Shown here: positions 6,419-42,607 of the stretch, one piece after another
Position numbering within the stretch: position 1 is the stretch's first letter
Layout: each line of letters opens with the position of its first letter
From: Thermoanaerobaculia bacterium
Lineage (GTDB): Bacteria; Acidobacteriota; Thermoanaerobaculia; Multivoradales; UBA5704
Direction of reading: 5' to 3'
DNA: 64,000 bases
Assembly (NCBI GenBank): GCA_049284515.1
Contig: JBAPYB010000416.1
Location: forward strand, 3,582-67,581
Program-made: the position numbers and the translations under genes
The notes under the pieces: generated by a model
What the model saw: the letters and a program-made list of their open reading frames with translations, nothing else
Database searches by the model: none
Told to the model about the DNA's origin: nothing

Positions 6419-6489
6419 GACTCCAAAGCATATCCTAAGTCAGCGCCAAGATATCCTTCGACGTAATCAATCTAGGATACAAAGAGCGA

Positions 6490-8106: not shown

Positions 8107-8354
8107 GAGAAATTCCTTTCGGGCAGGAGAACAGGGGAAAGAGCGCCCGTCTTCCCGATAATATCGCTCTCCTGTTACTCAGTTCCGTGCCGGCGGCAGG
8201 CCGCCGGGTGGCCGCAGGTCGCAGCAGGCACTCAAGAGAAGCCTGTCGCGTTATTCCGCCTTTTTGAGCGTGCCGCCGGATCCCCGCTCCTGATACAATT
8301 TACGCCATCACATTCCGCTGCCCGGCTCTTGCCGCCGGTGGGAGGGGAGGGTTT

Positions 8355-9344: not shown

Positions 9345-9377
9345 CTATTAACGGCGCCCCCTCGTCTTCTTGCTTAT

Positions 9378-9449
9378 CTCCGGGGACGTGCTCACGACGC
9401 CCTTGCTGCCGGGGCTCGAAATCAGGCTGGCCGACCTCTTCGACTGAGG
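9378..9449 (+). pseudogene. 3' remnant of a second Uma2-family endonuclease gene
   Basis: About 70 bp is near-identical to the 3' end of the intact Uma2 gene (10836-10910). It encodes GDVLTTPLLPGLEIRLADLFD-stop and has no 5' part. Confidence 0.6.
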
Positions 9450-9477
9450 AACTCTCTGGCGGCGACCGTAATGGCCG

Positions 9478-9545
9478 TTGTCTTTCTCCCTCTTCTCCCG
9501 GCCGGGGGGAGGGCGATGGGAGAAGAGGGCCGGGGTGATGAGGGG
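9478..9545. repeat. REP-like 68-bp hairpin element, copy 1
   Basis: Repeated at 27019-27086 with 2 mismatches. Contains the inverted repeat ctcttctccc...gggagaagag. Confidence 0.75.
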
Positions 9546-9609
9546 TCTTGGGAGGGTGGCAAGCCCTGGTTCCGTGCTATGGTCCCCTGTCGCTTCCGGA
9601 GGGAACCCG

Positions 9610-9846
9610 ATGAACCGGCAGACGCTGGCTCTCAGCATCGAGCAGGAGCTTTTGGAGGAGGCGCACGCAGTGGCGGTGCGGCGGCATACGTCCGTCAACG
9701 AGATGGTCCGCCAGTTCTTGAAGCAGGTCGTCCGGCAGGAACGCAAGCGCCTCGAGGCCTGGCACGACGTCAAGAAGCTCTTGGAAAAGCCCCAGGTCCG
9801 GCTCGGACCGGCTCTCCGGAGCCGGGAGCGGCTCCATGAAAGGTGA
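9610..9846 (+). CDS. VapB-like antitoxin
   Basis: ATG at 9610, trimmed from ORF 9478..9846 whose N-terminus reads through the REP element. 78 aa. Overlaps the start of the downstream PIN gene. Confidence 0.7.
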   Translation: MNRQTLALSIEQELLEEAHAVAVRRHTSVNEMVRQFLKQVVRQERKRLEAWHDVKKLLEKPQVRLGPALRSRERLHER

Positions 9847-10261
9847 GCTCGCCGCCTTCGTCGACACCAGCGTCCTCGTCTATGCCGTCTGCGCCGACCA
9901 GCCCCACAAGCAGCGGCTGGCCCGCAGCATCGTCGAGCGCGGTTTCGTCGAGGGGTGCTATGCCACCAGCACTCAGGTCCTCGTGGAGCTCTACGACCTC
10001 CTCACCCGTTGCGCCGAGGTGAAGCTCTCCGCCATGGAGGCCGCCGACTTCGTCCGCGCCCTCCGCGAGTGGCACCTCGTCGAGATGGACTCCGACCTCG
10101 TCTCCGCCGCCCTCAGCCTCGCCGAGCGCGAGGAAATGTCCCCCTGGGACGCCGCCATCCTCGAAGCCGCCCGCCGGGCGGACTGCACCCGCGTGCTCTC
10201 CGAGTCGCTACCGGCAGGGCGGACGTACGAGGGGGTACGGGTGGAGAATCCGTTCGCGTAG
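9836..10261 (+). CDS. vapC: PIN-domain toxin VapC
   Basis: 141 aa. N-terminus is AFVDTSVLVYAV (PIN acidic motif). The 11-nt overlap with the antitoxin is typical vapBC architecture. Confidence 0.85.
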   Translation: MKGELAAFVDTSVLVYAVCADQPHKQRLARSIVERGFVEGCYATSTQVLVELYDLLTRCAEVKLSAMEAADFVRALREWHLVEMDSDLVSAALSLAEREEMSPWDAAILEAARRADCTRVLSESLPAGRTYEGVRVENPFA

Positions 10262-10353
10262 GCGGCGAAGTGTGTTACGCCCCCGGTGCAACGGACCGGT
10301 GAAGAACCCAACCCGCCGTGCTAGGATCGTGGTCTCCGGAAGGAGGCGCGGCA

Positions 10354-10908
10354 ATGGCAGTTCACGATCTCCCCCGCAAGCTCACCTACGACGATTACGC
10401 CTCGATCCCTGAGGATGGCCAGCGCCACGAGATCCTCGACGGAGAGCACTACGTGAGCCCAGCGCCTCTCATTCCGCATCAAGAGGTCTCTTCCAACCTG
10501 CACACGGAGCTGGGCCCGTTCATCAAGAAGCACCGGCTGGGCAAGCTGCTGGCCGCTCCCACGGACGTGATCCTCTCTACTCACGACGTCGTCCAGCCGG
10601 ACTTCCTCTTCATCTCGACCCAGCGGTTCGGGATCATCACCCGGGAGAACGTCCAGGGCGCGCCGGACCTGATCATCGAGATCCTCTCTCCAGGGACCCG
10701 CAGCCGGGATGAAGGAATCAAGAGGGAGATCTACGAGCGCTACGGCGTCCCGGAGTACTGGCTGCTCGATCCGGACCGCAAGACCACCCGAGTTTACCGG
10801 CGCCTCGGCAACCGGCTCCGCCTCGTCGCCAAGCTCTCCGCGGGGGACGTGCTCACGACGCCCTTGCTGCCGGGGCTCGAAATCCGGCTGGCCGACGTCT
10901 TCAACTGA
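10354..10908 (+). CDS. Uma2-family (DUF820) putative endonuclease
   Basis: Contains YDDY...GQRHEILDGE...PDF.F......GAPDLIIEILSP...D...K...Y...GVPEYWLLD, the characteristic Uma2 pattern. Probable start is M13 of the ORF. Confidence 0.85.
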   Translation: MAVHDLPRKLTYDDYASIPEDGQRHEILDGEHYVSPAPLIPHQEVSSNLHTELGPFIKKHRLGKLLAAPTDVILSTHDVVQPDFLFISTQRFGIITRENVQGAPDLIIEILSPGTRSRDEGIKREIYERYGVPEYWLLDPDRKTTRVYRRLGNRLRLVAKLSAGDVLTTPLLPGLEIRLADVFN

Positions 10909-11300
10909 GGGCGGGCTGGAGTCTCAATGCCAACCACTACCCACGCCAGCACGGCGCAAGCCACGGCAGCAAACACAACCGATGCAACCACATCCTTCGA
11001 CGACCGATAAACTCTAAGTATTCGGCGTAAATGTTCCCCTTTCGAACCGCGCTCCTCCAGTCTTTGCTCTTCGACGGCCCGCGCTTGAAACCAACCAACA
11101 CAGTCCGCCAAGAATGTCAAGATGACTCCAACCGCTAAAAGGGACAGATACGTCAACCGCACTCCCCCGCGAACCCCATCGCTGGTCATCAAATTGACAG
11201 CGCTTGCCAAAAGTATTACAGCCAAAACATCATAGAACCGCCGGCTCAAACTAAAGACCAGCACTATCAGTGCAAACCAGAATTCTGCTAACATCCTCAC
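10794..11300 (-). CDS. Small integral membrane protein, last gene of the island operon
   Basis: 168 aa with about 4 hydrophobic helices. Its last ~38 codons read antisense through the 3' end of the Uma2 gene, so the native C-terminus is uncertain. Confidence 0.5.
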   Translation of the reverse strand: MRMLAEFWFALIVLVFSLSRRFYDVLAVILLASAVNLMTSDGVRGGVRLTYLSLLAVGVILTFLADCVGWFQARAVEEQRLEERGSKGEHLRRILRVYRSSKDVVASVVFAAVACAVLAWVVVGIETPARPQLKTSASRISSPGSKGVVSTSPAESLATRRSRLPRRR

Positions 11301-11303
11301 ATT

Positions 11304-12641
11304 TCACCGAGCCTTCCTATCCTGTAGCAACTCCACCACTTTCCTCACGCGCAAGTCATTCCCGCCGCTCTCGTCGATATTTCTACAGTCTTCTTGCCAT
11401 TTCTCTAGTCGCCCCCTATCTTGCTCCGCTTCAATAATTGCACCAAACTCTCTACCCTCTTCTGAAACAGGCTGAAGCAGCCTACGGTAAGTGTCACTAT
11501 TCCAAAGGCTACTCCAGATCCGACGCCACAACGCCAAAGTCTCGCCCCGCAAAACGCTAAGTGCTTGTTCTTTAGAGCGCTCTTCTTCTACTTCAAGGTC
11601 GGATAGTCCACCCGTAGCCTTTGGGTGAAATAGCCGAACTAAGAAAGCCAGCCTACTTGCGTCAATGATCAGGCCCGCTGCGCTGAGCTCCGAAACAATC
11701 GCCTCACTTGTCGACTCTTCCTTTTGTCGCTTTCGTACAACGCTCTCTACATACGTCCTCGCATCCTCCGAAAGGTCGCCGCAAATTTCGTCCACACAAC
11801 TCCTAAATGCGAGGGAGTAGCGCTCCGCCACAGCGAGGAGAAAACCCCAAAGCCCTCTTCGGTCACCGGGCAAAGGTACCGCCCTTGGAAGGCTTACGAC
11901 CTGATCTGCGAACCATTTACAAAGCATGGCGATCAGATGCGGATGCCTTCCACAGAAGGCTAAAATATCTTGTTCTACATACCTCAACTGAAAGTCCTCG
12001 CGCTCCTCCTTTCCAATCACCCTTGAAATAACCCCTCGTATAAGCTCCCGGCTTTCCTCTTCACTGAGCCCACGGATCACCATGTCGGGCCTCCCGACAA
12101 TTGGCTTCGGAAATGGTCGCTTGGACCATGCCACTTCTCCAGAATCATTCCTCTCCTCAAATACGATCTTAACCTCTACGTCACCTAGGAGCCCAGAAAA
12201 AATACTATTGACCTGAGCATCGATTTTGCTCGTCCTTCCCGGAACTCGAACTAAGAGCCGCTTTATCCCCATTCGCTTTAATCCATCAGCGATCATATAA
12301 CCCAGCCCCAAGAGGGACCGGCCTCTGGAAAGCTCCGCCGCCTGCTGAGCCCACTCCTTTCCGAGGTTGGACCCAACAAACTCTATGAGACCTTCAAGAG
12401 GCGTCTTATCTATGGGCTCAGGAACAAGCTTAAAGTATGCACCTCCATTGGCGACCACTTCAAAGGCTCTAACGATCATGCACGTCTTGCCGATCCTGTA
12501 CACTCCACGGACTCGTCGCAGATCGGAGCCGGAATCCGCCATGAAGGCCTTTAACTGCTCGAAAGGCCTCAAACGCGTACCTGTCGCCTCTAACCCGACG
12601 AGCACTTCGCCCTCCCCAAGCTTTTCGTTCTTCTCTTCCAT
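11304..12641 (-). CDS. Hypothetical protein in the island operon (~445 aa)
   Basis: Long ORF in low-GC DNA with the start trimmed to MEEKNEKLG. No motif was recognised by eye. Confidence 0.55.
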   Translation of the reverse strand: MEEKNEKLGEGEVLVGLEATGTRLRPFEQLKAFMADSGSDLRRVRGVYRIGKTCMIVRAFEVVANGGAYFKLVPEPIDKTPLEGLIEFVGSNLGKEWAQQAAELSRGRSLLGLGYMIADGLKRMGIKRLLVRVPGRTSKIDAQVNSIFSGLLGDVEVKIVFEERNDSGEVAWSKRPFPKPIVGRPDMVIRGLSEEESRELIRGVISRVIGKEEREDFQLRYVEQDILAFCGRHPHLIAMLCKWFADQVVSLPRAVPLPGDRRGLWGFLLAVAERYSLAFRSCVDEICGDLSEDARTYVESVVRKRQKEESTSEAIVSELSAAGLIIDASRLAFLVRLFHPKATGGLSDLEVEEERSKEQALSVLRGETLALWRRIWSSLWNSDTYRRLLQPVSEEGREFGAIIEAEQDRGRLEKWQEDCRNIDESGGNDLRVRKVVELLQDRKAR

Positions 12642-12661
12642 AGGGGCACTCACAATGGTCG

Positions 12662-14578
12662 TCAGACCCCTTCTACTCTGCTTGCTTGAGCCAGTAGACC
12701 TACCCTCAACCGACAAGTCTTGTTTGCTTCGTCAATATGGATGATCTCTTTCTCAGCCAGAGCCTGGATCAGCGGGCCTTCCGCTGCCACTACCTTCCTC
12801 GTGTAACCATGCTCCGAAAAACGCTCGGCGGTGCCGACCAGCCGTACAAGGAAGGTCCACTCTTCCTCGCTAATGCTTTCGCTCATGTACGCGATATAAT
12901 TGTGCTCCGTCACCAAAACCTCTTTGGCGACGGCTTTCATGATCTTTATGTCAATCGGAAATCTTCCTCCGTGGGCCGCGACGTAATCTACCGCTCTTTG
13001 GAACAAAAGCTGTGCCAACCCAGGCCACCCTCCGCTTGCGCACCAAATGTATTCTACCGCTAAATCGGTAAATTTGATCGATTCGGACACTTCTGCGAGT
13101 CTCTGTAAGTCGGGCAGGCTTAGGAAAGGCACTCTTCTCGGCAGCACTGAAACGCCTCCTGAATCGAAGCGTGTTTTCCAACCCCGGGACGACCAATCAT
13201 GCGTAACAAGCATTCTGTAACCGTTAGCACCACTGGCGAGTTCTTCAAGCAAGTCCAAAACCACGCTGGCATTACCCTTTAAGTTTGAGCGAATGACTGG
13301 TATGTCTAGTTCGTCAATGAAAAAGATAAATCCTTGCCTATCTGTGGCCTGAGATAGAAGCCCCAGAATCTCTCGTAGCCCTTCCGCCGAGAGGCTAAAC
13401 TGCGGACACCTCTGTAACACTCCACTATTCCTGGAGACGCTCTCCGCTATATCCAAATTGCCAACGGCCAAGCTGGAGACATACCTTTGCGCGCTGGCTG
13501 CGAGCTCAAAGCATATGTCACCGGCGCCTAAAACGTCATCTCCGTCCATTCTATTTTCCCACCATCCGAACACGTCAAGGACAAGAGGCATAAACTTCTT
13601 CTCTGCCTCTACCTCCCTCGCAATCCTTCTGAGAACAGTTGTCTTTCCTGTCCGACGGCAGCCACGTAACACAACCACTTTCTCCCCGCCCCAACTCTGC
13701 CCAGACAGTTCAGCTACGAGTGCCTTGTGCCGGCCCTTAACCAGCCGTTCCCACTGTAGCTCCGAAATGAGCGGTAAGTCCGCCACATACGGATTGACGA
13801 CGCTCAATGGCGGCGTGGGCGTGTGAAGGATGACCTCAAGATGGTTTGAGGATAGCATCCTCTCCGATGCCGATGCCGCACCGGACCAGCTTGATTCCGC
13901 CCAGAATTCGAGAACGCAGTCTTGCTCATATCTCACAGTGACAACTCTCCGAAGGCCCGAGTGCCCGGTAATATCTCCTAAACGCACAGTCCACAACCTC
14001 TTTTGCTTATCCCAAACTGAATCTTCAATACTAGGCTTACCATCGCCCAGCGCACGGAGATAAAGGGATGTGGCTCCTGCTCCCAATCGGCCTCTGTTTT
14101 CGATTGAAATCGGCAGGTCGAGAGAGTAAGGTCCACTCGCAGAATGGAGATCCTCTTCTATGACTTCGTGATCGAGTGACACAGCAAGGGACACGAGAAG
14201 AAACGCATTCTCCTCCTCACCGCGCAACCCTCTCAACCAACGGCGGGCTGTTTCGAGCATGATCAATTCTTCTGGAAGCCCCTCATCATCGATAGCCATG
14301 ATTTCTTCAAAAGCTGCGAGCCGGTCAGCCAGAAGATCGGGAGTACCGGAGCTACAAAAAGCCTCAGCTGAGTAGCCGACTAACTCTTTAAGGGGAGTCC
14401 TACCTTGAACGCTGTCTGCTGAAAAGGTGACGTTCTCCTGGAGAGGAGACGCGGTCGCAATTCTTACCAGTTCCGAGTAGACATTAACCCTTTCCTTCGC
14501 TCCTGGAACGCCGATCTCCGCAAGATTCATAAGCTCGTCGCGGTATCGGCCTAGCGCTTCCACCTCACGTAATTTCAT
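12662..14578 (-). CDS. STAND/ORC-like P-loop ATPase
   Basis: 638 aa. Walker A is LRGCRRTGKTTVL and Walker B is FIFFIDELD. A long N-terminal extension of ~300 aa and a helical C-terminus are present. Confidence 0.7.
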   Translation of the reverse strand: MKLREVEALGRYRDELMNLAEIGVPGAKERVNVYSELVRIATASPLQENVTFSADSVQGRTPLKELVGYSAEAFCSSGTPDLLADRLAAFEEIMAIDDEGLPEELIMLETARRWLRGLRGEEENAFLLVSLAVSLDHEVIEEDLHSASGPYSLDLPISIENRGRLGAGATSLYLRALGDGKPSIEDSVWDKQKRLWTVRLGDITGHSGLRRVVTVRYEQDCVLEFWAESSWSGAASASERMLSSNHLEVILHTPTPPLSVVNPYVADLPLISELQWERLVKGRHKALVAELSGQSWGGEKVVVLRGCRRTGKTTVLRRIAREVEAEKKFMPLVLDVFGWWENRMDGDDVLGAGDICFELAASAQRYVSSLAVGNLDIAESVSRNSGVLQRCPQFSLSAEGLREILGLLSQATDRQGFIFFIDELDIPVIRSNLKGNASVVLDLLEELASGANGYRMLVTHDWSSRGWKTRFDSGGVSVLPRRVPFLSLPDLQRLAEVSESIKFTDLAVEYIWCASGGWPGLAQLLFQRAVDYVAAHGGRFPIDIKIMKAVAKEVLVTEHNYIAYMSESISEEEWTFLVRLVGTAERFSEHGYTRKVVAAEGPLIQALAEKEIIHIDEANKTCRLRVGLLAQASRVEGV

Positions 14579-15977
14579 TACCCCCTCCTACCGCCATTCT
14601 CAAATCCCACGCAGCTTTAGATAGGTTCCGTATCCCTCGATAGAGTCCTGCTTCTCCGTCGATGCTGCCGGGTGATTCCTTCATCTCTATGAAACCACGA
14701 AGAAGCTCCACGCCGAGCGGCTGTACTCGAAACGACTCGTACTCTTCCAGCAAAATTTCGGGATGCAAAATCCATCTACGCGCAATCACAGGGGCGAGAC
14801 TCCAGGCGATCTCTCGGGGCTTCTCATTAGAAAGCAAGCCGACAATCCGAAGTCTCTCGTGCTCTAGGTCGGCGCAATGGTTAATCATTGCCGATAGGAT
14901 TTCTCTCAGTTCCTCGCTTATGGTCCCCCCCGACTCTCGCGCCAACGAAACTCCTTCTGTGAGGGCGGCTTCGAGGGCCAAATTTGCTTCATCGCGTTTA
15001 CCAACTTTTTTGCCGAGCTCCACCGCGGCACTTCGCATCCTCTCTACTTTCGCAAGACTTACAGATACTGAGCCTCTTCTCAGTCGCGCTCTCCTCCAGA
15101 GCAAGTAGGACCAGAGCGCTAGAGCACCAAAGCCGATGGGCAACCAAACGCGGACCATCTTCCCTCGGTACCCGCTCCACATATTCTCCGTTGACCCACC
15201 TGAGAGAACTCGAGGTCTCGGTTCCAGCGATATCGGAGCTTCAAGTTTATTCTGGAGAATGCGTCTTGTCTCCAGGAGGAGATTGGTGCCCTCCGACACT
15301 CGGATATACCTTCCATGCCCCAACACCCTCTGCCAGAGAAGCATCTCGCGTTGGCGATCCCCAACTGCTAGAATATTGACCTCTGCACCCCAAGCCTCCA
15401 GACTCCTGATGGCTTGCACAGGTGAAACAGAGTTAGTTGCTGTATACAAATCCTCGCCGCTAAGATAGCTTTTCTCCTCTGGTTCGCTCATTCGCCTCGG
15501 TTGAAGCCAAGGTTCCCCATCTGTAATCATGAAAACCAGACACATGCGATTGACAAAGCAAGGCTTGCCTCTCCGGAAGGCTGATAGAGCGTATTGAAGT
15601 GGAGGCCTGAAGTCCGTGAATGAGATCGGCACTGAGTACGAGAAAGGCGCCTGATCTCCCGACTTGCCATCCATCACTATTTTCGCTCCCAATTTTTCTC
15701 CAAAATCAACCGCTTCTATGTGAACCTCTAAACCGTAGAAATCGACCGCGCCTGCGAATTGCCTTAAAAGGCTCGTGGCTAATTTCGTTACGGCCGGTTC
15801 TCCGTTGTACTTCCTTGCCACCATGCTCGGTGATCTGTCTAGAAGAAGTACGATGTCCAATTTCGGCTCTGCGCTACTCACTTGCCCTAAGACTTCAGCC
15901 GAGACCCCCGTTGTTAACAGAGTCGAGAGTAGGAGAACTTCGAAAAGCACTCTTCCGACTGGTAGGTGTAAGGACAT
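14565..15977 (-). CDS. Membrane-anchored vWA-domain protein
   Basis: 470 aa. N-terminal signal-like segment is LLLSTLLTTGVSA. MIDAS motif is LLLDRSPSM and MITDGEPW follows. An internal TM helix (VWLPIGFGALALWSYLLW) precedes a helical tail. Confidence 0.7.
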   Translation of the reverse strand: MSLHLPVGRVLFEVLLLSTLLTTGVSAEVLGQVSSAEPKLDIVLLLDRSPSMVARKYNGEPAVTKLATSLLRQFAGAVDFYGLEVHIEAVDFGEKLGAKIVMDGKSGDQAPFSYSVPISFTDFRPPLQYALSAFRRGKPCFVNRMCLVFMITDGEPWLQPRRMSEPEEKSYLSGEDLYTATNSVSPVQAIRSLEAWGAEVNILAVGDRQREMLLWQRVLGHGRYIRVSEGTNLLLETRRILQNKLEAPISLEPRPRVLSGGSTENMWSGYRGKMVRVWLPIGFGALALWSYLLWRRARLRRGSVSVSLAKVERMRSAAVELGKKVGKRDEANLALEAALTEGVSLARESGGTISEELREILSAMINHCADLEHERLRIVGLLSNEKPREIAWSLAPVIARRWILHPEILLEEYESFRVQPLGVELLRGFIEMKESPGSIDGEAGLYRGIRNLSKAAWDLRMAVGGGNEIT

Positions 15978-16140
15978 AAGCTAGCCAACGTTAACGTTCT
16001 TGCAGCGCTTCTCGCAGAAGTCCTTTTCACCTTGTAAAACAACACCCTCAGAGGCAGCAATACGGCTTATGAAAGGACTCCAGCAGAGAATGAGCGCTTT
16101 TCTGGGTCTCATGGATGACCACCAAATCTGCGAGGTCGGC

Positions 16141-17646
16141 CTACTTTCTCTCGAAGTTCAAAGACAAGCATCCGCGGTAGCGGCTACGGCCCACGGTCTT
16201 CTGTAAGATGCTAGTCGAGACATCGCGAAGGTAGAGGGTCTTTCCTGAAATTGCTTTCGGGGAGGTGTCATCCTGTGTGCTCCAAGCGCCGAGCCAATTC
16301 TCTGCCCCGATGAAACTCATGTCGACAGAAATTGACAAAGGGATGGCTAGCTTCCATCGATCGCGCGGCTGCGAGACTAGTCGCTCGTAAGGGATCGAGA
16401 GCTCTAAGTACTGAACCATGGAACTATCCTGCACTGGCTGCTGGCGCTTGACCTCGAAGTGAGGGATGCCGCGTGTTAATCTCGCACCGAGATCCAGATT
16501 CCCCTCGGACGCACTCTTCCAAGCCTGCAAAGGTAGGCTTAGCAAAACGTCATCTTGGTTGATAGATAATCGAACCTTCACAGGAAATAGAATCTCCGAG
16601 GATCTTGGTTGCTCGAAGTCTAGCTCAGCTAAGCTCATTGAGGTATCCATCGGGCGATGAGTCCAGCTCCGAACACGAAATATATCGACGAAACCGGGCG
16701 AGGCCTGCTGATCTCCCGGCCCGTGAGAAACCTCTATCTCTTCTGGTTCTTCAACTACGAGTGAAGGCAAAATCCCAGGAAAGAACTCGATGACCTGGCT
16801 CTTGGAATGGCTACCTGCACTCAGACCGCTGTACCTTTCCAAATCTTCATGCAATCTCGCGACGAGTCGGCGCCCCTTCTCCCAATCTCGAGATACAACC
16901 CAACAATAGAAAGGCCTTTCACTCCCTTGCTGCAAGGTTATCCTTTGATTGGTTACAACACCCGCCGGTCCTCGGGTAAGAAGTACACTATAATAGACTC
17001 CATCGAAAGGGCTTTGAACTCCCAGAAGCCAAACCCCGAATCCTTTACCTGCAAGATCTCCCGTTACTGCCCTAACGATACCGGACCGATCAAAGCCAAA
17101 AGCTCTTCGTTCTTTAAAGGTCTCCAAATCTTGGGTGTTGTCCGTGATTACGACACTGAGAGAGGATTCCTTTCCGGAAGCTCGCTCTAGAGCCGCAACA
17201 ATATCCGTGTCGCGCTGGGAATAACTTCCCCTGCTTCTAACGAAATCTTGAAGATGGCTTAAAGGCGAGGGCGATGTAGGAACTTCACTTCCAAACGGAT
17301 AGAATCCTGGCACAACACCAAGGTCGTTCAATTCCTCCAGCAAAAGACTTTGCAAGAGTTGCTGGAGAGGTGACACGGGCATCGCGTGAGTAGCGTCACT
17401 AAGATATCCCTGCATAGACTCGGAGGAGTCCAGGTAGATATCCGCTTGGGTGACTGGCGCTGAAGCAAACTCGGTTGCTTTCTCAGAGTGGCACAATTTC
17501 TCCGCGTCCTCCGTACCCTCAGTGGTCCCTCCGCAAGATGTTCCCAAGAAAAGGGCGACTGTTGCCAACAGAGCAAGCCGGACAGTTAGCCGGTCGTTGA
17601 TTCTGCCCCTCCTCATCGATAGCCTCCTCAAAGCCTCAGACGACAA
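16141..17646 (-). CDS. Secreted or lipoprotein-like vWA-like protein
   Basis: 501 aa. Signal sequence has a lipobox-like FLGTSC. MIDAS-like motif is IYLDSSESM and VVITDNTQD follows. Confidence 0.6.
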   Translation of the reverse strand: MSSEALRRLSMRRGRINDRLTVRLALLATVALFLGTSCGGTTEGTEDAEKLCHSEKATEFASAPVTQADIYLDSSESMQGYLSDATHAMPVSPLQQLLQSLLLEELNDLGVVPGFYPFGSEVPTSPSPLSHLQDFVRSRGSYSQRDTDIVAALERASGKESSLSVVITDNTQDLETFKERRAFGFDRSGIVRAVTGDLAGKGFGVWLLGVQSPFDGVYYSVLLTRGPAGVVTNQRITLQQGSERPFYCWVVSRDWEKGRRLVARLHEDLERYSGLSAGSHSKSQVIEFFPGILPSLVVEEPEEIEVSHGPGDQQASPGFVDIFRVRSWTHRPMDTSMSLAELDFEQPRSSEILFPVKVRLSINQDDVLLSLPLQAWKSASEGNLDLGARLTRGIPHFEVKRQQPVQDSSMVQYLELSIPYERLVSQPRDRWKLAIPLSISVDMSFIGAENWLGAWSTQDDTSPKAISGKTLYLRDVSTSILQKTVGRSRYRGCLSLNFERK

Positions 17647-18454
17647 AGGTGCCCCTCCTCACCACCAAATCCTTCGAAATAAAGCCTTCGAGGGACCCCT
17701 GCGCTTCCAGGAGGGCACAGCGCCGAAGCTCTTTCACGAAGAGATCCACGCTTCCGCTGGCTCCCAGAACCTCAAAGAGATGATCATGCACCAGGGGATC
17801 ATAGCGGCTATAGTTGCGTGGGATGAGAAAGCGCCTGCAGTCCTTCTGGGGATCTCGGTATGCCACTGACAAGAAAAACCAATGATTCGAGCCGCCTCTC
17901 TCCACAGAGGGATAAGGCTCGATAATAGGTTCCGCTAAGCCCTCATTTCGAAAGTAATCGAGAAGTTTTTTCGATGCTTCCTCGAAGGCTCCTTCCATCC
18001 CAGGCCACACCCCCGCCAAGAATCCTGGCGCACTCAATTCACGAGCTAGCAGATTTTCGAGCGCGAGAGAATCCTGCTCCTCGCGTCTGGGGAGTTGCGG
18101 AAGCTGGTCAAGGTGCAGGGATGCAACGGCTTCATCTTCTTGGTTGTCATGCTGAGGAGCCCTTCTTGGTTCCGCCAGTTGCCCAGCCTTCCTGAAATCG
18201 GCTTGGAGCGCCAGAGCGTCGGTCAAGGGTTTGAGATCGAGGCTTTGGGGCTTCTGCGCCAGGATCTGCGTCAAAAGGAGATCGGTCTTACTCTCGACAT
18301 ACTTCTCGAGAGCCCGAAACTCCCGGCGCCAGTCCTCGATCGAAGGCAGGGACTGTCGGTTCTTTGCCTGCCGGCTCTGCAACCACAGCCACACTACGCC
18401 ACTGAGCGACAAGGCTTGGAGGACGACAAGCCAGATTAAGAGGGCCTGCTGCAA
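17636..18454 (-). CDS. N-terminally membrane-anchored protein of unknown function
   Basis: 272 aa. Has a single N-terminal TM helix (LLIWLVVLQALSLSGVVWLWL). Its start abuts the stop of the upstream gene. Confidence 0.55.
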   Translation of the reverse strand: MQQALLIWLVVLQALSLSGVVWLWLQSRQAKNRQSLPSIEDWRREFRALEKYVESKTDLLLTQILAQKPQSLDLKPLTDALALQADFRKAGQLAEPRRAPQHDNQEDEAVASLHLDQLPQLPRREEQDSLALENLLARELSAPGFLAGVWPGMEGAFEEASKKLLDYFRNEGLAEPIIEPYPSVERGGSNHWFFLSVAYRDPQKDCRRFLIPRNYSRYDPLVHDHLFEVLGASGSVDLFVKELRRCALLEAQGSLEGFISKDLVVRRGTFVV

Positions 18455-21400
18455 TCAGAGCCTCCTGGCTCGATAAAGCTGCTTCAGGTAGATCGTCTCG
18501 AGGAATCGCACGAGGATGCTGCGGTTTACCAACGGGCGCTCGATGTTCACGATGTCCTTGTTGCACTCCCTCTCAAGCGCTTGGACTTCGGCGCCTTTCT
18601 CGAACTGGATGAAATCCCAAGCTGGCGGGAGCTTGATCTCTGAAAGGACCGGATGCAAACGAGAGTCCGAGAGCTGATGGGGCACGACCTCATGCCAGGG
18701 CACATCTTCGCGCTTTCCCGAACCGTTGCTGTAGCGGACGTCAAATCCGACAACGGACCGGACGCCATTTACTCCGTTGCCGACATCCTCAATGCTGCGG
18801 TACAAATCTCTCTCTGCCGCTATGATCGTGCCGTAGCCAATCGCCGCCTTCGGTCCGGGCCAAGTAATACCGTTCCCGAGACTAGGCTCCCTTGCAGCCG
18901 TCAGTTTGGTGAAGCCCTCCCTCTCAAGAAGGAAGCGAAACACTTCACGAAAGCCGGCGCGGTAGTTAGAATCCTGGGAGGGTACGACATCGGCCAGAGA
19001 CCAGCCATTTCCTACGAGATAGAAGGTCACCTCTTCCTGACGATAGTCCTTCTGCCGATGGACCGACAATGAGTCGAACAAGCAACGAATAAAATGCGCG
19101 ATGGGAGAGTAGAATCGTATAAGCAGATCGATCATTACCTGCCGGGCATGAGCGTTGCCGCGATATTGCGTCCGCACGACGGTCTCGAATCCTCGCAGGC
19201 GGGTTTCCCGCAGCAACCACAAGAGGCGATGCCGCGCGTCGCGAGTCTCTGTGGGCTTCGGAAACAGGTCCGCTTGGCGATCATCGGCGAGTAGGCGCAG
19301 GAAGGCGTTGCCACCATAGAGCAGACTATCGATGAAGATTGGCTTCAGCTCGCTCTGATCCCATTCGAACATGCCGATGTCGGTAGTACCTCCCCCCATA
19401 TCTACAACCAAGGAGAGACCCTCAGGAACTCTTAGAGAAAACGCCGCCGCTCGCGACTCATCAATGAAGTGTTGAGTATTGGTCGGGAACCCAGTGAGCC
19501 TGTCGAGCGATTTCAAAACACGGTCAAGGCACTGGAGATACGTTTTCAACTTGGCTTGGGAAAAGGCTCGCGGGAATGACGCCCGCACTTTGAGGAATCC
19601 GGTCCTCGGCTCCTCGGCAATGATCGTCGCCAAGGTGAGAACGAGGAACAGCTCGAGGTAGCGAGACACGGCCTGTTCATAGGTGAAACGACCCGCGGCA
19701 TCGCCCTTCTCGTCCAAAGTCTTCAATTCGTAGATGACTTCTCCCTGGGGCTCCGAGACGTAGACGTGCAGAATGCGAAATCCGCCGATCGGCTTGTTCA
19801 GCATCTCCGCCGAGACCGGAGGAGTGACCACTAATTCTGACGGAATGAAGTAATTCATCCTCTCAATGATCTCGATGGGTTCTGGAGCCACGCCGTCCTC
19901 AGTTTGAAGTTCAGAGAAGTAGCGGGATCGAACCGTCTCCTCATCGTCGATGCGGTAAGTCGGCAGCCACTGAGAAGTCCGAATGATACGATCTGATATC
20001 GTTCGGTTTCCAATCAGCGTTTCGGTGAAGTCTCGAAACCGTATGACCTTGGGCGCATCGTCACCGATCCTATACCACACCGAGGAGCTCGACGTTCCAA
20101 AGTCGAGCGATATGGTCACCGGAGTCTGACCACGATGCTGCTCGACGCGAGAGGTCTCATAGATTCCCGACTGAGACTCGATCTTCCCGTCTTTAGAAAA
20201 GACAATCTCGAATGCTTCAAAAGGCTGCGTTAACTGGCCACGCCTGTCCGTTAACAGCGTCGGCTCACCGTGAGTATCCAGGCTTCGCAGGGTAATACCC
20301 GCCTTGTTCATCCCCGGGGTCGATTCAAGGAGGTAGTAGTATACGTTCCACCCCCTTAGGTTGAATCGCGGCCAGGAAAGGAGGATCGCTTCCTCCTTCT
20401 GGATCTCCTTGGGTGAGTACCGCAGAGTAATGGTGGTGCTCTTCCAGCCTTCGACGTTCACCTTTAGTGGTACGATGTAGTCACCCGACAGACGATCCAT
20501 TACAGCGCGCCTGTCATCCGCAATGGACACCAGTCCGTAGTACTCGCCCCGCACCGGCAAACTCGGCTCATACTGATGGCTGTTGTCCTGAGGGTCCTGA
20601 AAGAAGATCAGCCGAGTGCATTTGAGGGCGTCTTCCGTCAGGATGAGCCCGCGTATCTTGAGAGAGAATTTCCCCGTCTGGAGGACAATCCCATCTTGTT
20701 CGTAGGACACGTACTTGGAATAGGGGAGACGGCGCACGGGACTATCGGCAAAAGCATAAATGAGATAACGGTTTCGCCCCTCGTCAAATTTGATCCATGT
20801 CGCGTACTCCTCCAGCCAATTCTGCCTCGCGCCGCAGTGCGGGCAGCGACATTCATCAGGATGAGCGATGTCGACCTGACCTGTTTCTGTTGTGATGTCG
20901 AACCCGCAATTCTCGCAAACAATGGGCGTACCGATATAGAGAGGGATCTGGGGCTGTGAAACTTCTGCGGCCAAGCCAGCCTCCCCCAGGCGCAGAACCG
21001 GTCCAACTCCGAAGAGCCGCGCAGGCTCCCGCGGCAGCGAGCCCGATGCATCGGGATTCCACACCGCCGCCAACCTGTAGACCAAGGTGTAGAAGGGCAG
21101 ACGCCCCTGGTCTTGCTCATCGAAGGTGCGAACCCAACCGACGAAATACTCGGACGCCTTTTCCACATCCTTCGCCTGGACCGCCTCCTTCAAAGACGCG
21201 AGGGTCTCAGGTCTCAAGCGGGAAGCAGGAGCGAAACCGATACCTGGATACGTGAAGCCAATAACGCTACCAGAATACGTCAGGAATTGAAACCGAAATC
21301 CGGATTCGAACGATTCGAACTCTCGGTGGAGGATCAGCCCCAATTCTTTTAAATCCTCCAGCTTGACGTCTCGCGGTGTGATTAAGCCGAGATAGATTCC

Positions 21401-21667
21401 CTTGAGTATCAGGCTCCAGAGCTCGAAGCTCTCGCTGAAGCGAAGCCTGGAGCCCTTACCCTGGAGATCTAGCAGGTATTGGTCGAGACGATTTGCAAAG
21501 ACGAGCGCGTTCGCCAGCGGCGAAGGGGTTCCGAAGTCGCTGGCATCGAAGTAGTTCTCGCATAGATTGCGCTGATAATCCAGATCGGAGACCCCGTGGA
21601 GGCCAACCTCGGCTTGGTGGGGCCAATCCTGCACTTTCGGCTTGGGCAGCAGGGGAACGGTCGCCAT
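18455..21667 (-). CDS. Giant Hsp70/actin-fold ATPase with an N-terminal region containing a zinc ribbon
   Basis: 1070 aa. Zinc ribbon is CENCG...18 aa...CPHCG (aa 251-279). Phosphate-1 is SLDFGTSSSSV (aa ~519). Phosphate-2 is VVDMGGGTTDIG (aa ~753). An adenosine-like motif FYLVGNGWS is present. Confidence 0.75.
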   Translation of the reverse strand: MATVPLLPKPKVQDWPHQAEVGLHGVSDLDYQRNLCENYFDASDFGTPSPLANALVFANRLDQYLLDLQGKGSRLRFSESFELWSLILKGIYLGLITPRDVKLEDLKELGLILHREFESFESGFRFQFLTYSGSVIGFTYPGIGFAPASRLRPETLASLKEAVQAKDVEKASEYFVGWVRTFDEQDQGRLPFYTLVYRLAAVWNPDASGSLPREPARLFGVGPVLRLGEAGLAAEVSQPQIPLYIGTPIVCENCGFDITTETGQVDIAHPDECRCPHCGARQNWLEEYATWIKFDEGRNRYLIYAFADSPVRRLPYSKYVSYEQDGIVLQTGKFSLKIRGLILTEDALKCTRLIFFQDPQDNSHQYEPSLPVRGEYYGLVSIADDRRAVMDRLSGDYIVPLKVNVEGWKSTTITLRYSPKEIQKEEAILLSWPRFNLRGWNVYYYLLESTPGMNKAGITLRSLDTHGEPTLLTDRRGQLTQPFEAFEIVFSKDGKIESQSGIYETSRVEQHRGQTPVTISLDFGTSSSSVWYRIGDDAPKVIRFRDFTETLIGNRTISDRIIRTSQWLPTYRIDDEETVRSRYFSELQTEDGVAPEPIEIIERMNYFIPSELVVTPPVSAEMLNKPIGGFRILHVYVSEPQGEVIYELKTLDEKGDAAGRFTYEQAVSRYLELFLVLTLATIIAEEPRTGFLKVRASFPRAFSQAKLKTYLQCLDRVLKSLDRLTGFPTNTQHFIDESRAAAFSLRVPEGLSLVVDMGGGTTDIGMFEWDQSELKPIFIDSLLYGGNAFLRLLADDRQADLFPKPTETRDARHRLLWLLRETRLRGFETVVRTQYRGNAHARQVMIDLLIRFYSPIAHFIRCLFDSLSVHRQKDYRQEEVTFYLVGNGWSLADVVPSQDSNYRAGFREVFRFLLEREGFTKLTAAREPSLGNGITWPGPKAAIGYGTIIAAERDLYRSIEDVGNGVNGVRSVVGFDVRYSNGSGKREDVPWHEVVPHQLSDSRLHPVLSEIKLPPAWDFIQFEKGAEVQALERECNKDIVNIERPLVNRSILVRFLETIYLKQLYRARRL

Positions 21668-21683
21668 CGCTTACCTCCAGACT

Positions 21684-23099
21684 CTACAGACTAAAAACTT
21701 GCGCCAGATGCGACAGGAAGAGGTTCGAGAATCTTTCCGCGAAGGCTTCGGGAGTGCGTAGGTCCCTCTTCGGAAACTGTGCCACGACGTGCCGATCGTC
21801 ACACCAATCCTGGATCGCGGCGAGCGGCTCGGCGACTGTCTGATCGTAGCGCTCCGCCAAGACTCTTTCGGCTCCCTCTGGGAATGGGAAAAAGTGGGGA
21901 TGGTTCATTTTCTTGATCCAATCAACATTGGCGGTTGACTGGCCCTGGAGTTTTCCGAGGTAATCGGCAACGGCAGCAGTCACCTGATTGTCCGTCAGCG
22001 TGGAGCCTTTCAGCATGTTGATCGCCGTCTGGATCAAGATAGGCTGATGTGAGCCCGGAAGTCGCGGGAACTTTCGGAAAAACTTGCTGAGGATGCCTAG
22101 CCAGTGGCCGCGAACGTACGACCGGTGGATCACCTTGATCAGGCTGAGGGGGTCGGCGTTCGCCTCGCGATTCACCAACAGGTTACTGGCATTGAGTCCG
22201 CTTTCATCGTCGTACCAATATCCAGCTATTCCCTGAGGTGGGGAGAGAGCACCGGCGAAATGATTCTGGACCAGCAGAGCTGCCAGGAGATTGAGGATAT
22301 GAGGGACCTCATCCTGCGACGACTCGCTGCTGGTCCGGTCCACCTGGCCGGGATCAGGAACACCCAGGAGAAATACCGTGTTCACAAATTGACGCAGCCG
22401 CTCCCGGAAGTAGTAGATGCCGGCGGCCGCATTAGGCTCGAAATTCGCATTGAGATAGTCGTGTAGCTTCGCCTGGGAGGCCTTCACTCCACCTTCTGGT
22501 GGGATGAGACGGAACCACGGTAAGAAGATCATGGCGTCCACCTGAAGGTTGTAGCCAGGCTGGCCATTCAAGCGGGAAAGCTCAGAGGCGAGCATCGGCA
22601 CCCCGCCGGACCCGGTGCCTCCAAAGCAGGAACCGACGAGAATGACGTGCTTCTCTCCTCCTCTCAAGGCGTTCTTCAGGTCCTTCATATCCTCGTCGTC
22701 CTGCTGGATCTTGTACTGGATGCAGGTGGCCCCGATCGCGGGCCGGCCATACATGCCGGTACGGATCGGCGTATGCTCCGCTTCTTCGGAGAAGAGGCAA
22801 TTGAAGAGCTCCCGGCGGTCCCCCGCCAGGTTTCCGAACAAACTGCCAAACGTCTTTCGGTCGGCATCGGCGATCGGAAAGGGGTCGATCATCCAGCGGA
22901 GAGGGGGCTCCTTTCCACCTACCACTTCTTTGACCCTTCCCTTGAGCGTTGCGAGCACGCGGCCCAACGGGCCTTCGGTGTCTGAATCCACGACGTAGAA
23001 CGTCGCCGGAGTAAAGCCGGCCATCTCCGCAAGCCGCAGGTAGGCAGCGAGGACCATCTGCCCAGTACCGCCAACTCCGATGAGAACAGGGATCTTCAT
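21684..23099 (-). CDS. Tubulin/FtsZ-superfamily GTPase (Tubulin_2/FtsZl1-like)
   Basis: 471 aa. T1-like loop is VLIGVGGTGQ. T3-like loop is GMYGRPAIGA. The tubulin signature is GSCFGGTGSGGVP (nt ~22602-22622). Confidence 0.75.
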   Translation of the reverse strand: MKIPVLIGVGGTGQMVLAAYLRLAEMAGFTPATFYVVDSDTEGPLGRVLATLKGRVKEVVGGKEPPLRWMIDPFPIADADRKTFGSLFGNLAGDRRELFNCLFSEEAEHTPIRTGMYGRPAIGATCIQYKIQQDDEDMKDLKNALRGGEKHVILVGSCFGGTGSGGVPMLASELSRLNGQPGYNLQVDAMIFLPWFRLIPPEGGVKASQAKLHDYLNANFEPNAAAGIYYFRERLRQFVNTVFLLGVPDPGQVDRTSSESSQDEVPHILNLLAALLVQNHFAGALSPPQGIAGYWYDDESGLNASNLLVNREANADPLSLIKVIHRSYVRGHWLGILSKFFRKFPRLPGSHQPILIQTAINMLKGSTLTDNQVTAAVADYLGKLQGQSTANVDWIKKMNHPHFFPFPEGAERVLAERYDQTVAEPLAAIQDWCDDRHVVAQFPKRDLRTPEAFAERFSNLFLSHLAQVFSL

Positions 23100-23113
23100 G
23101 TCAACTCCTTGCC

Positions 23114-23746
23114 TCAGCCATTCTCCATGATGCGCTGAAATTTCTTTGCTGTCACGGACCTTGGAAGCGTCACTCCTACCCAGAAGAAGAGAAACGCCGC
23201 CAGGAGAGAAGTCAATAGAATGAAAAGGCCGAGAACGAGGCCGCCAAGCCAGCTTCGCAAGGCCCAGGCGGCAGGAAGGAACTGCTTGGCGAGCTCGACC
23301 TCATTGGTCGGCTGAAAGATAGCCCTGGGCAGGCCGATGCCTGAAAGGATGCACGCGACGGCGAACAGCAGGAACAACGCATTGAACCAGGACTTCGATT
23401 CTCGGTCGGCGGCAATGGCACGCGCGTTCATGGCTGAGGTCCAGCGATACCAACCCGCGAGCCCCATACCCATGAAGAGACTGATCAGAGCCCACACAGA
23501 GAGAAATAGCCATTTCTGGCTGGCTACGAACTCAGGGCGGATCAAGCCGCTTGAGCTCGTGTCGATCGGGCCGAGAAAGCGCCCCGTTATCGCGTTGACC
23601 TGGTTTGGCAACAAAGTCGTGTAGATGCTGAACATAACCGACAAGATCGTTGCGATTGAGGCTGCCACGTTGAAAACGGCGTCGAGCTTGCGCTGGTTGG
23701 CCACAGAAATCTCCTCACGCGTAAGCGCGGAACAAAATCGAGACAA
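23114..23746 (-). CDS. Integral membrane protein, first gene of the island operon
   Basis: 210 aa with about 4 TM helices. TTG start; an alternative GTG start lies at 23704. Confidence 0.6.
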   Translation of the reverse strand: MSRFCSALTREEISVANQRKLDAVFNVAASIATILSVMFSIYTTLLPNQVNAITGRFLGPIDTSSSGLIRPEFVASQKWLFLSVWALISLFMGMGLAGWYRWTSAMNARAIAADRESKSWFNALFLLFAVACILSGIGLPRAIFQPTNEVELAKQFLPAAWALRSWLGGLVLGLFILLTSLLAAFLFFWVGVTLPRSVTAKKFQRIMENG

Positions 23747-23815
23747 CAGCCCTCAAGAGAGGACGGGATCCCAGGCCTCTACATGTTCATTTAGGCACAG
23801 AGCACTCGTAGCCCT

Positions 23816-23844
23816 AGTATTCCACGCAGCGACGGGCTGGTCAA
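23816..23844 (-). promoter_or_regulatory. Candidate sigma-70 promoter of the island operon
   Basis: The minus strand reads TTGACC-17 nt-AATACT about 70 nt upstream of the first gene. The match is weak. Confidence 0.25.
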
Positions 23845-24072
23845 GGCTTCAAGGTCAGGCTAAAAATAGTTACGCATCGAAATATTGCAATGCTAGGCTA
23901 CGACGCTGGCCGCCCCTCTGTTCTAACCCCTGAAGACACCAGCCAAGTGGCTTTGGTTAGACGGATTGGACGCCGCAGGTGCTCGTGCTCCCGGCCCCTC
24001 CCGGCCCCTCCTTTACCTGTAAGCAACCCCGGTTCCGTGCTATGGTCCCCTGTCGCTTCCGGAGGGAACCCG

Positions 24073-24279
24073 ATGAACCGGCAGACGCTGGCTCTCAGCA
24101 TCGAGCAGGAGCTTTTGGAGGAGGCGCATGCGGTGGCGGTGCGGCGGCATACGTCGGTCAACGAGATGGTCCGCGCAAGCGCCTCGAAGCCTGGCACGAC
24201 GTCAGGAAGCTCCTGGAGAAGCCCCAGGTCTGGCTCGGGCCGGCTCTCCGGAGCCGGGAGCGGCTCCATGAAAGGTGAG
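24073..24279 (+). pseudogene. Degenerate second copy of vapB plus the first 4 codons of vapC
   Basis: 24031-24279 matches 9568-9847 apart from a few substitutions and a 31-bp internal deletion that shifts the frame. Similarity ends after ATGAAAGGTGAG. Confidence 0.75.
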
Positions 24280-24413
24280 TTGGGGGTGTCTCGAAAGATG
24301 GCGTCTGCGCCTCCGATGGCGCCCGGGGCTGAAGACCCGGGCGGTCAGGCGGAGATCAACACTTTCGAGACACCATCTTAAGGGAGCTACCAGGGGGCGG
24401 TGGGCCGAGACCG

Positions 24414-24725
24414 CTAGCCAATGCGGCGGTTCAGATCCCCGTAAGACAGGTGGAGCAGAGTCTTCACCTCCCCGATCTCTTTCCTGAGCTCCGATCGGTG
24501 AGCAACGAGCTTCTCGTCGAAAGTGCCCATCTTCTCCGCGAGCAACTGAACGTCCCCACGCAGACCCTCTACCATGACCTGGGTATGCCGGACACCTTCC
24601 TCCACGCGCTCAATGCGGCCGTTGGTCTCTTCGAACCTGCCGTTGGTCTCTTCGCGGAAGCTTGCAAGCTGCTGAGCGCTTTCGCGGAAGCGTTCGTCGA
24701 GATAGGTGATCAAGTCTTTGTCCAT
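24414..24725 (-). CDS. Small coiled-coil protein, hypothetical
   Basis: 103 aa starting at MDKDLITYL. Heptad-rich sequence; trimmed from the 148-aa ORF. Confidence 0.5.
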   Translation of the reverse strand: MDKDLITYLDERFRESAQQLASFREETNGRFEETNGRIERVEEGVRHTQVMVEGLRGDVQLLAEKMGTFDEKLVAHRSELRKEIGEVKTLLHLSYGDLNRRIG

Positions 24726-24947
24726 GGCACCCTGAGCCCCGAGGTTGGTAGCAGCAAGAAACGGTAGGCTACCGCAGGTCGCACCAGGCACACAAGAGAA
24801 AACCGCCCCCGCCGGAATACCTCCCACCCCTCCTCTTGTTCTCCTCGAACAGACGTTCAAAGGGGCTAAAATGCCGGGTCATCTATATGACGGAGCGCCA
24901 TTTGACAGGGTTGACCGGGGCCGAGTAGAGTGCTACGCGTGTGGGAG

Positions 24948-42429: not shown

Positions 42430-42607
42430 CAAGCAATCCGACGTTCGGCCCGAAACAGCATTGTCGCGGTCCGACTGCAATCGGGAGTCCATCCACGCCT
42501 GCCGCGCCCCTCCCCCTTTCCCTATCCTCCAGCTCGTGATTTCTATACAATGCGTAAGCTAGAGGGCGATCAAGTCTCACCCACCCGAGGCTTAGAGAGG
42601 TAGAGCT

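Follow-up and report, generated by a model that had tools for sequence, protein, structure and literature searches.

How does a low-GC operon of 13 kb come to lie beside a toxin-antitoxin cassette in a bacterial chromosome, with part of that cassette repeated on its far side and no integrase nearby? This question is raised by a 64,000-nt stretch of DNA (hereafter the window, whose coordinates are used throughout) from contig JBAPYB010000416.1 of a Thermoanaerobaculia bacterium, assembly GCA_049284515.1, a 7.8-Mb draft in 695 contigs. A sequence-only reading of the window had described an island bracketed by duplicated pieces of a vapBC cassette and of a Uma2-family gene, and had treated it as a one-off insertion. 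We compared the locus with 40 genomes of the genus and 7 metagenome contigs (Thermoanaerobaculia / Thermoanaerobaculaceae, Acidobacteriota); the genomes are metagenome-assembled genomes (MAGs), with one genome per species. The repeats and the low-GC island are confirmed, but the region proves to be one of the states that a hotspot takes across the genus. Core genes bound this variable hotspot: those for a Type ISP enzyme and a SEC-C protein to its left, and that for a CarboxypepD_reg-domain protein to its right. We also give slightly better than an even chance to the reading that the present state of the hotspot (8.2-24.8 kb) holds two vapBC alleles joined by host recombination, through one exchange and one illegitimate join. 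The class of feature is already known, as an integrase-free hotspot island with a recombination scar.

A repeat search of the window returned three pairs of long repeats: 9564-9711 with 24027-24174 (D1, 97%), 9742-9847 with 24174-24279 (D2, 94%), and the 98-bp pair 9352-9449 and 10813-10910 (D3, 86%). No further long repeats, and no terminal inverted repeats of at least 30 bp, were found in the 8-26 kb searched. The vapB pair lies on the plus strand. Its left copy (9564-9847) comprises the vapB promoter box, an intact vapB (9610-9846) and vapC codons 1-4, and its right copy (24027-24279) has the same parts except that vapB is without 31 bp (CAGTTCTTGAAGCAGGTCGTCCGGCAGGAAC), a frameshift deletion by which the reading frame is lost after VapB residue 34. 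Repeat search and alignment thus agree with the first description of this duplication and its deletion. The longest exact run common to both copies is 98 bp (9568-9665 and 24031-24128), the copies are spaced 14,463 bp apart, and the segment occurs only twice in the whole 7.8-Mb assembly. Between them lie vapC, Uma2 and the low-GC island, where GC content is 49-59% from 10911 to about 23900-23950 against 62-73% in the flanks, with both edges sharp. The repeat is a 250-bp gene segment whose left copy stands 1 kb from the left GC edge. The 3' end of Uma2 does recur near the Rpn gene, as had been proposed, over 98 bp rather than about 70 bp; however, it does not bracket the low-GC block, because both Uma2 copies lie to the left of it.

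No mobility gene of its own was found for the island. No tRNA was detected in window positions 1-40000 and no Rfam family in 8-26 kb, and scans of the open reading frames (ORFs) from 3.3 to 35.8 kb with Pfam, NCBIfam and PADLOC found no integrase or transposase domain other than that of the Rpn (Transposase_31) nuclease family. The whole island is taken up by the operon, so that no space is left for a further gene such as a recombinase. An integrase-mediated genomic island was considered and rejected: there is no recombinase gene at the edges, no tRNA, and there are no short direct repeats at both GC edges. By the criteria for a transposon, inverted repeats of at least 30 bp and a transposase beyond the Rpn family are both missing, yet a 9-bp repeat, GTTCCGTGC, is present at 8182, 9569 and 24032. 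Low GC, together with the absence of the cargo from close relatives, upholds the view that the island was acquired horizontally.

The flanks of the locus are conserved across the genus, on the left from about 2000 to 8169 and on the right from 24812 onward. On the left lie minus-strand genes (3362-8106) that Pfam assigns to a restriction-modification enzyme of Type ISP/IIG (3362-6418) and to a protein with a SEC-C motif (6490-8106); this flank is collinear, at 78-82%, with G066, G005, G010, G069 and L061. The SEC-C gene is present in 31 of the 40 other genus genomes and the right flank in 39 of the 41 genomes searched. The right flank (24812-26879, plus strand) begins GGAA(A)TACC and holds the CarboxypepD_reg-domain gene (24930-26879); its boundary is common to relatives and falls at one nucleotide in G066, G010, G005, L058, L059 and the present genome. 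Comparison with related genomes, suggested at the outset as the way to define the empty site, located that site in G066, where the locus consists only of the SEC-C gene, 47 bp, vapBC (94%), 16 bp and the right flank.

Other relatives fill the same slot with different cargo (G010, G005, G011, G019, G002, G004 and L058-L061). G010 has a single NMT1/TrkA-domain gene 3' of vapC. In G005, a closed chromosome, 18 kb of 50-62% GC follows vapC and includes a TIR protein and a ParA/STAND-like protein matching a PADLOC candidate system. L061 has the SEC-C gene, vapBC and then a low-GC Tubulin_2/vWA island; like L058 and L059, it was found by a metagenome scan with VapC. In L058, L059 and L060 low-GC cargo lies upstream of vapB and the downstream slot is empty or holds only a coiled-coil gene, and G069 has 4.8 kb inserted between the SEC-C gene and vapB. 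Because cargo occurs on either side of vapBC, the locus has two insertion points, one upstream of the vapB promoter and one after the vapC stop codon. Between the SEC-C gene and the right flank, G066 has 0.8 kb, G010 3.1 kb, the present genome 16.7 kb, G005 19 kb, and G019, G011, G002 and G004 have 27-43 kb; in some genomes the two anchors are unlinked. By tblastn and BLASTP, the islands of L058-L061, G014, G018, G005 and G076 have no protein in common with the present operon. Shared core flanks, an empty site or other cargo in relatives, and atypical composition are thus all found here, as in a hotspot.

Hotspots that lack mobile elements are common, and recombination at their conserved flanks diversifies them (Oliveira et al. 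2017, PMC5635113; PMC10250203). The present locus resembles these, including the core defence hotspots of P. aeruginosa (Johnson et al. 2023, PMC10250203), in its conserved flanks, its empty site and its lack of an integrase, in a variable slot of 0.8-43 kb with unrelated low-GC cargo, and in neighbours of defence type (Type ISP, Rpn, VapBC, Uma2 and, in G005, TIR). Unlike them, its two insertion points hug a small toxin-antitoxin cassette within the hotspot, and unlike the outcome of a plain double crossover in the flanks, the present genome keeps the scar of two cassette alleles.

That cassette is the key to the event. The vapB gene, an ORF of 78 codons matching PF19891 (DUF6364), overlaps by 11 bp an intact vapC (9836-10261, plus strand) for a PIN-domain toxin (Pfam PF01850, E 6e-11), and on their sequences the two qualify as putative type II toxin-antitoxin genes of the VapBC family. 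VapC is 93-99% identical to the VapC proteins of relatives; an exact-sequence look-up of VapC returned no record. Third-codon-position identity to G066, G005 and G010 is 82-88% in vapBC, against 66-72% for the left flank and 78-81% for the right one. The cassette thus stands above its flanks, which suggests that it was exchanged more recently than the flanks diverged.

The two vapB copies are 96.4% identical overall (9 differences in 248 bp), and the differences are unevenly placed, with none over the first 97 bp and all 9 in the other 151 bp. Over the first 97 bp both copies differ at no fewer than 3 sites from every relative, and at 3-8 sites from the closer genomes. In the 3' 151 bp, G005, G066, G010 and mg58-mg60 are 8-13 differences away from either copy, and mg61, G018, mg62 and G069 are 15-22 away. 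In the tree the intact left copy has a terminal branch of 0.036 and the right copy one of 0.011, contrary to what would be expected of a constrained original and a drifting right-hand duplicate. Taken together, we think that the pair is probably not a simple duplication in place.

The right copy also has the older surroundings. L060 carries an intact vapBC, then the small coiled-coil gene that is found here at 24417-24725 on the minus strand (no significant Pfam match), then the right flank. Window positions 24382-24654 match L060 3392-3665 (92%, 274 bp) right behind the vapC of L060, with homology resuming at 24382-24384. Because L060 shares these surroundings, the right vapB copy appears to be the one in the older context. 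Where its vapC should run from codon 5 to the stop, the present genome has a 100-bp hairpin repeat element (24284-24383), near-perfect, with a fold energy of -62 kcal/mol (z = -5.45); judged by the intact vapC at that place in L060, the hairpin repeat is a replacement of the missing part of the gene. Copies of the element occur elsewhere in the genome (contigs C598 and C30) and in G066, G069, G005 and G018, as a rarer family than REP, and its junction with the truncated cassette was found in no relative searched. The 75 bp upstream of the right vapB were also tried as a diverged form of the 48-bp leader of G066, G005 and L058-L060 and rejected, as the alignment did no better than shuffled sequence (p about 0.6). 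A separate observation concerns G022, which has two vapBC copies (contigs C360 and C150), 90% and 82% identical to the present one; C360 breaks off within vapB, which would fit a cassette that is repeated in G022 as well.

We hypothesize that two cassette alleles were brought together in this genome. The right copy would be the older resident, which later decayed through the 31-bp frameshift in vapB and the loss of vapC to the hairpin repeat, whereas the intact left copy, the Uma2 module and the low-GC operon of 13 kb would have come in as one piece. Both joints would be the work of host recombination, with no recombinase encoded by the island: an exchange in the vapB promoter and 5' region, the site of the 98-bp exact run, and an illegitimate join at 24026/24027. 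This arrangement would be the expected product of a single crossover with a re-circularised fragment, or of one-ended (homology-facilitated) recombination, and the direct duplication of an anchor on both sides of the insert that marks Campbell-type or one-ended integration is observed here. The block of Rpn gene, Uma2 fragment and REP-like element at 8191-9568 would be a separate insertion at the same promoter box. A preference for recombination through a vapBC cassette over site-specific integration had already been voiced in the sequence-only reading, and it gains from the empty site of G066, from the differing cargo at two points and from the nature of the repeat as a 250-bp gene segment.

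The scheme has precedents. Single crossover of re-circularised fragments has been seen experimentally to leave anchor duplications of 109-950 bp (PMC3240628), and the same scheme has been proposed for arrays of orphan immunity genes in the T6SS (type VI secretion system) clusters of Vibrio cholerae (PMC5361080). As in such additive integration (PMC3240628, PMC5361080), an anchor of a few hundred bp is duplicated on either side here and one junction lacks homology; as in the Vibrio cholerae case (PMC5361080), an incoming toxin/antidote module would displace the resident toxin and orphan its antidote gene. The present case differs in that it is read from sequence, in that the anchor is a type II antitoxin gene, and in that the orphan is already frameshifted. 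Classical homology-facilitated illegitimate recombination differs as well, since it leads more often to deletion than to the duplication seen here.

Several points weigh against the joining of two alleles. No donor genome with vapBC, Uma2 and the operon was found among the genus genomes and contigs compared, and the place of the operon directly against the Uma2 stop codon is left without explanation. With one genome per species, there is no same-species genome from which to date the event. The two vapB copies still group in the tree, weakly (support 81/74), and the contrast of 0/97 with 9/151 differences is a weak one, with P about 0.12 for zero differences by our estimate, which rests on the 5' part of vapB evolving roughly 2.5-3 times more slowly between species.

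The left-hand side of the locus has a scar of its own, and the first rival explanation turns on it. Here the plus-strand sequence 8191-9568 is a 1.38-kb insertion comprising the Rpn gene (8355-9344), a 3' fragment of Uma2 (9352-9449) and a REP-like element (9478-9556), and it is missing from G066, G005, G010 and L061. Junction alignments place the 9-mer GTTCCGTGC, which opens the vapB promoter box, on the plus strand beside the SEC-C leader (8182-8190) and again at 9569-9577 and 24032-24040. In 15.6 Mb, with both strands counted, the 9-mer occurs 30 times. The 9-bp direct repeat flanks both the 1.38-kb Rpn block and the whole 15.8-kb segment and, by coordinate count, joining 8107-8190 to 9578-9609 or to 24041-24072 gives a spacer of 116 bp between the SEC-C gene and vapB, against 117 bp in G010. 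Because either join gives the same spacer, the spacer cannot distinguish insertion of the Rpn block from insertion of the whole segment.

One might then suppose that all 15.8 kb (8191-24031) entered in one step into a resident vapB promoter, with a 9-bp target duplication (GTTCCGTGC at 8182 and 24032) and with the left vapBC as cargo, by staggered-break end-joining or an unrecognised transposition-like activity and with no homologous exchange. The Rpn nuclease would be one candidate agent: its gene begins 165 bp inside the left end, and the Rpn proteins of E. coli raise RecA-independent recombination (PMC5350276). A single event would suffice, the 9-mer flanks the entire block, and the joined flanks restore the spacer almost to the length seen in G010. 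However, with a copy of the 9-mer at 9569, the Rpn block by itself is just as well flanked; terminal inverted repeats are missing; and the 9-mer belongs to a promoter-like box that precedes another gene in G069. The exact identity of the two vapB copies over 98 bp at the 5' end would further require an extra gene conversion. A decayed Rpn paralogue on contig C490 (4683-5525; 88-96% identical, with a 325-bp internal deletion and REP elements on both sides) shares only 8198-9360 and not the ends of the block. We regard a single insertion as unlikely.

The composition of the Rpn block is informative in its own right. The Rpn gene combines Rpn/Transposase_31 and DUF4351 domains, and the REP-like element, of about 75 bp, has hundreds of copies in the genome and occurs in relatives too, often at contig ends. 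The Uma2 fragment is the remnant of a Uma2 module that stood upstream of vapB and had its 5' part replaced by the Rpn gene; an intact Uma2 lies directly upstream of vapB in G022, G002 and L064. The complete Uma2 here runs from a promoter box, CCGTGCTAGGAT, to its stop codon (10308-10908, plus strand; coding sequence 10354-10908; Pfam PF05685, E 2e-36). G005 has a copy, 226 kb away from its vapBC, that is 90% identical and matches exactly 10308-10908; the complete Uma2 is therefore a discrete module.

We also note some regularities of these small modules. In both vapBC and Uma2 the homology boundaries run from promoter box to stop codon. A promoter-like box, CCCTGGTTCCGTGCTATGGTCC, precedes vapB and, in G069 (L046 7935-7960), another small gene, and the box that starts the Uma2 module at 10308 is similar. 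A search for GGTTCCGTGCTATGGTCC as a common genomic motif gave only 7 loose matches in the genome.

An improbable history, in our view, is a tandem duplication in place of vapBC, or of vapBC with Uma2, followed by insertion of the island between the copies and decay of the second. Such a history would account for the periodic order of Uma2 fragment, vapBC, Uma2 and vapB, for the fact that the two vapB copies are overall each other's best match, with their weak grouping in the tree, and for the best match of the Uma2 fragment being the neighbouring Uma2. However, in the 3' 151 bp the copies are as diverged as those of different species, the functional copy sits on the longer branch, and the Uma2 pair differs by 14% where the vapB pair differs by 3.6%, a misfit to one duplication. 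Moreover, a tandem vapBC is seen neither in the 40 genus genomes nor in the 7 contigs.

Very unlikely is an assembly artefact, in which the contig was threaded twice through the 98-bp repeat, the chromosome has the decayed vapB alone, and vapBC, Uma2 and the operon belong to a 14.46-kb circle or to a co-occurring strain. The draft state of the genome, the sharp jump in GC and the restriction of the island proteins to this one contig would all fit. The left edge of the island, where it meets the Uma2 stop codon, lacks any repeat prone to misjoining, though, and family scans of the putative circle gave no genes for replication or partition. Both flanks are collinear with the single locus of relatives, and comparable low-GC islands occur at this locus in the closed chromosome of G005 and on independent contigs. 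The sister MAGs have k141 contig names, and if k=141 was used here too, 141-mers would span the 98-bp repeat.

An att site at the vapB promoter box, used by a recombinase that has since been lost or is encoded elsewhere, would suit the sharp insertion boundaries that recur across genomes and the three copies of the 9-mer, but such site-specific integration is barely credible, given that no recombinase lies in or near the island or beside the operon in five other contexts, that the cargo of L058-L060 ends 48 bp further upstream, off the box, and that the repeat is 250 bp of gene sequence with allelic differences.

If two vapBC alleles were indeed joined by host recombination, the resulting structure has a consequence for its own persistence. 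Recombination between the vapB repeats could delete 14.46 kb, and the 98-bp exact run would be long enough for it. Crossovers in that run would leave a frameshifted vapB and no vapC, whereas after a crossover downstream of the 31-bp gap a functional vapB would remain, and such crossovers should be tolerated. Most such deletions would take with them the sole intact vapBC, and selection through post-segregational toxicity should therefore oppose island loss. In other words, vapBC should stabilise the island. Stabilisation of chromosomal islands and cassette arrays by toxin-antitoxin modules has been reviewed (PMC12548467, PMC5543033), and here, as in those islands, the sole intact vapBC lies within the segment that recombination between the repeats would delete, as judged from sequence. 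The assembly contains no contig with the alternative junction that excision or deletion would leave.

The cargo (10911-23950, minus strand), delimited by GC profile, ORFs and weak family matches, is an operon of 8-9 genes, ahead of which a promoter-like site lies on the minus strand at 23844-23816. In the direction of reading, and all on the minus strand, the genes encode a transmembrane protein (23114-23746), a tubulin-like GTPase of 471 aa (21684-23099), a 1070-aa protein with a motif of Hsp70/actin type, DMGGGTTD, noted by sequence reading (18455-21667), a 272-aa protein (17636-18454), two DxSxS (vWA-like) proteins (16141-17646 and 14565-15977), a P-loop ATPase with a Walker A motif, likewise noted by sequence reading (12662-14578), and a 470-aa protein (11304-12716), followed by a small transmembrane ORF (10940-11300). 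Almost no matches to these genes were found in Pfam, NCBIfam and PADLOC. The DxSxS motifs DSSESM and DRSPSM can be read in two cargo proteins; neither has a significant Pfam VWA match, and an L039 homologue of a DxSxS protein has a faint one.

The tubulin-like protein has a GGTGSGG motif and scores 22.4 bits against Pfam PF13809, under the 27-bit cut-off, and some of its homologues carry a PF13809 annotation. An AlphaFold2 model built from the homologue alignment has a predicted local distance difference test (pLDDT) score of 83 and a predicted TM-score (pTM) of 0.87. The best 50 of its 188 structural matches in the PDB (E at or below 1e-3) are all tubulin, FtsZ or BtubA, with low TM-scores of 0.22-0.31; because of these low scores we restrict the tubulin-like label to the GTPase core of the 471-aa protein. 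The gene has no close homologue among the other 91 genomes of the family, and a profile scan of 185,579 species genomes did not find it, while a word-based search of 5.8 billion protein clusters returned 37 other homologues. A homologue search with the last operon gene matched only the query itself.

A core of the operon (transmembrane, tubulin-like, ~1060-aa, ~265-aa and ~480-aa proteins) is kept in L030, L031/L032 and L039-L041, where the tubulin-like protein is 79%, 66% and 51-54% identical, respectively. In these contigs the operon has differing neighbours and no integrase, vapB or Uma2, and L030, L031 and L040, unlike L041, have a lower GC in the operon than in its flanks. Relative to L030, the tubulin-like and 1070-aa proteins are 68-79% identical, against 25-28% for the P-loop ATPase and the last gene (11304-14578 versus L030 10602-13608). 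This drop toward the 3' genes suggests a fast-evolving or swapped sensor module.

The allele in L031 (1103-21416) is the most telling of these, as its flank, which encodes PBP1c and alpha-2-macroglobulin, is 90% identical to G019. That gene pair lies within the present locus in G019, G014, G011, G002 and G069, beside the right flank or vapC, and does not lie there in the present genome, G066, G005 or G010. Because the pair sits at this locus in G019 and the others, the 66%-identical operon allele fills the equivalent locus in another member of the genus.

The nearest described match for the cargo is the FtsZl1 (Pfam Tubulin_2) class of operons, in which vWA and membrane proteins are co-encoded (Makarova and Koonin 2010, PMC2875224). 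Like these (PMC2875224), the present operon encodes a tubulin/FtsZ-fold GTPase without a recognisable C-terminal domain, together with DxSxS and transmembrane proteins, and its distribution is patchy. However, its GTPase falls under the Pfam cut-off and has no BLASTP similarity to the Tubulin_2 proteins that relatives carry at the same locus, and the operon adds the 1070-aa Hsp70/actin-like protein and the fast-diverging P-loop ATPase.

The recurrence of tubulin/vWA cargo at this locus is the unexpected part of our analysis, and the part that most deserves to be followed up. L059 encodes a 1327-aa Tubulin_2 and double-zinc-ribbon (DZR) protein (E 1e-62) with a vWA-FHA protein (1416-5399 and 8293-9513), and L061 encodes a pair of Tubulin_2 proteins along with a zinc-ribbon and a vWA protein (10929-19567). 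A system of the L061 type is found in G014 (L090 7278-19173), 8.5 kb from the right flank. G018 has three Tubulin_2 genes, all within 21 kb of vapBC or the right flank (C126:59031-68473 and C77:160678-161721), and G076 has one, 25 kb from the SEC-C gene. The genus as a whole has 24 matches to Tubulin_2 (PF13809) in 17 of 41 genomes, and at least 6 of the 24, in 4 separate islands, lie at this locus (within about 25 kb of the anchors), against about 0.3 expected by chance on our estimate. By sequence, at least three mutually unrelated tubulin/vWA types would alternate at this locus within the one genus: the present operon with the L031 allele, the double-Tubulin_2/DZR/vWA type of L061 and G014, and the Tubulin_2-DZR and vWA-FHA type of L059.

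We tentatively propose, as a possibility that we hold to be less probable than its opposite, that the slot is a hypervariable locus largely dedicated to tubulin-superfamily/vWA systems. These would be exchanged through recombination in vapBC and the core flanks, with vapBC acting both as portable homology and as an addiction module. Such a slot could be likened to O-antigen, capsule or T6SS effector-immunity loci.

Beyond the hotspot, the CarboxypepD_reg-domain gene is followed on its 3' side by genes for a histidine kinase, a sigma-54 regulator and an M14 peptidase, and another low-GC patch (49-59% GC) lies at 42000-46000 of the window.

The empty site, the alternative fillings and the scar formed by two cassette alleles together show, down to the nucleotide, how a chromosome can gain a large foreign operon without a mobility gene, and they do so in an uncultured soil lineage, from which such processes are barely on record. 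If the slot is indeed dedicated to tubulin/vWA systems, it would point to a conflict or defence role for systems of the FtsZl1 type, whose function has been unsettled since 2010. The setting of the tubulin/vWA systems in this hotspot, beside restriction, Rpn, VapBC and TIR genes, is the best clue so far to a role in conflict rather than in housekeeping membrane remodelling.

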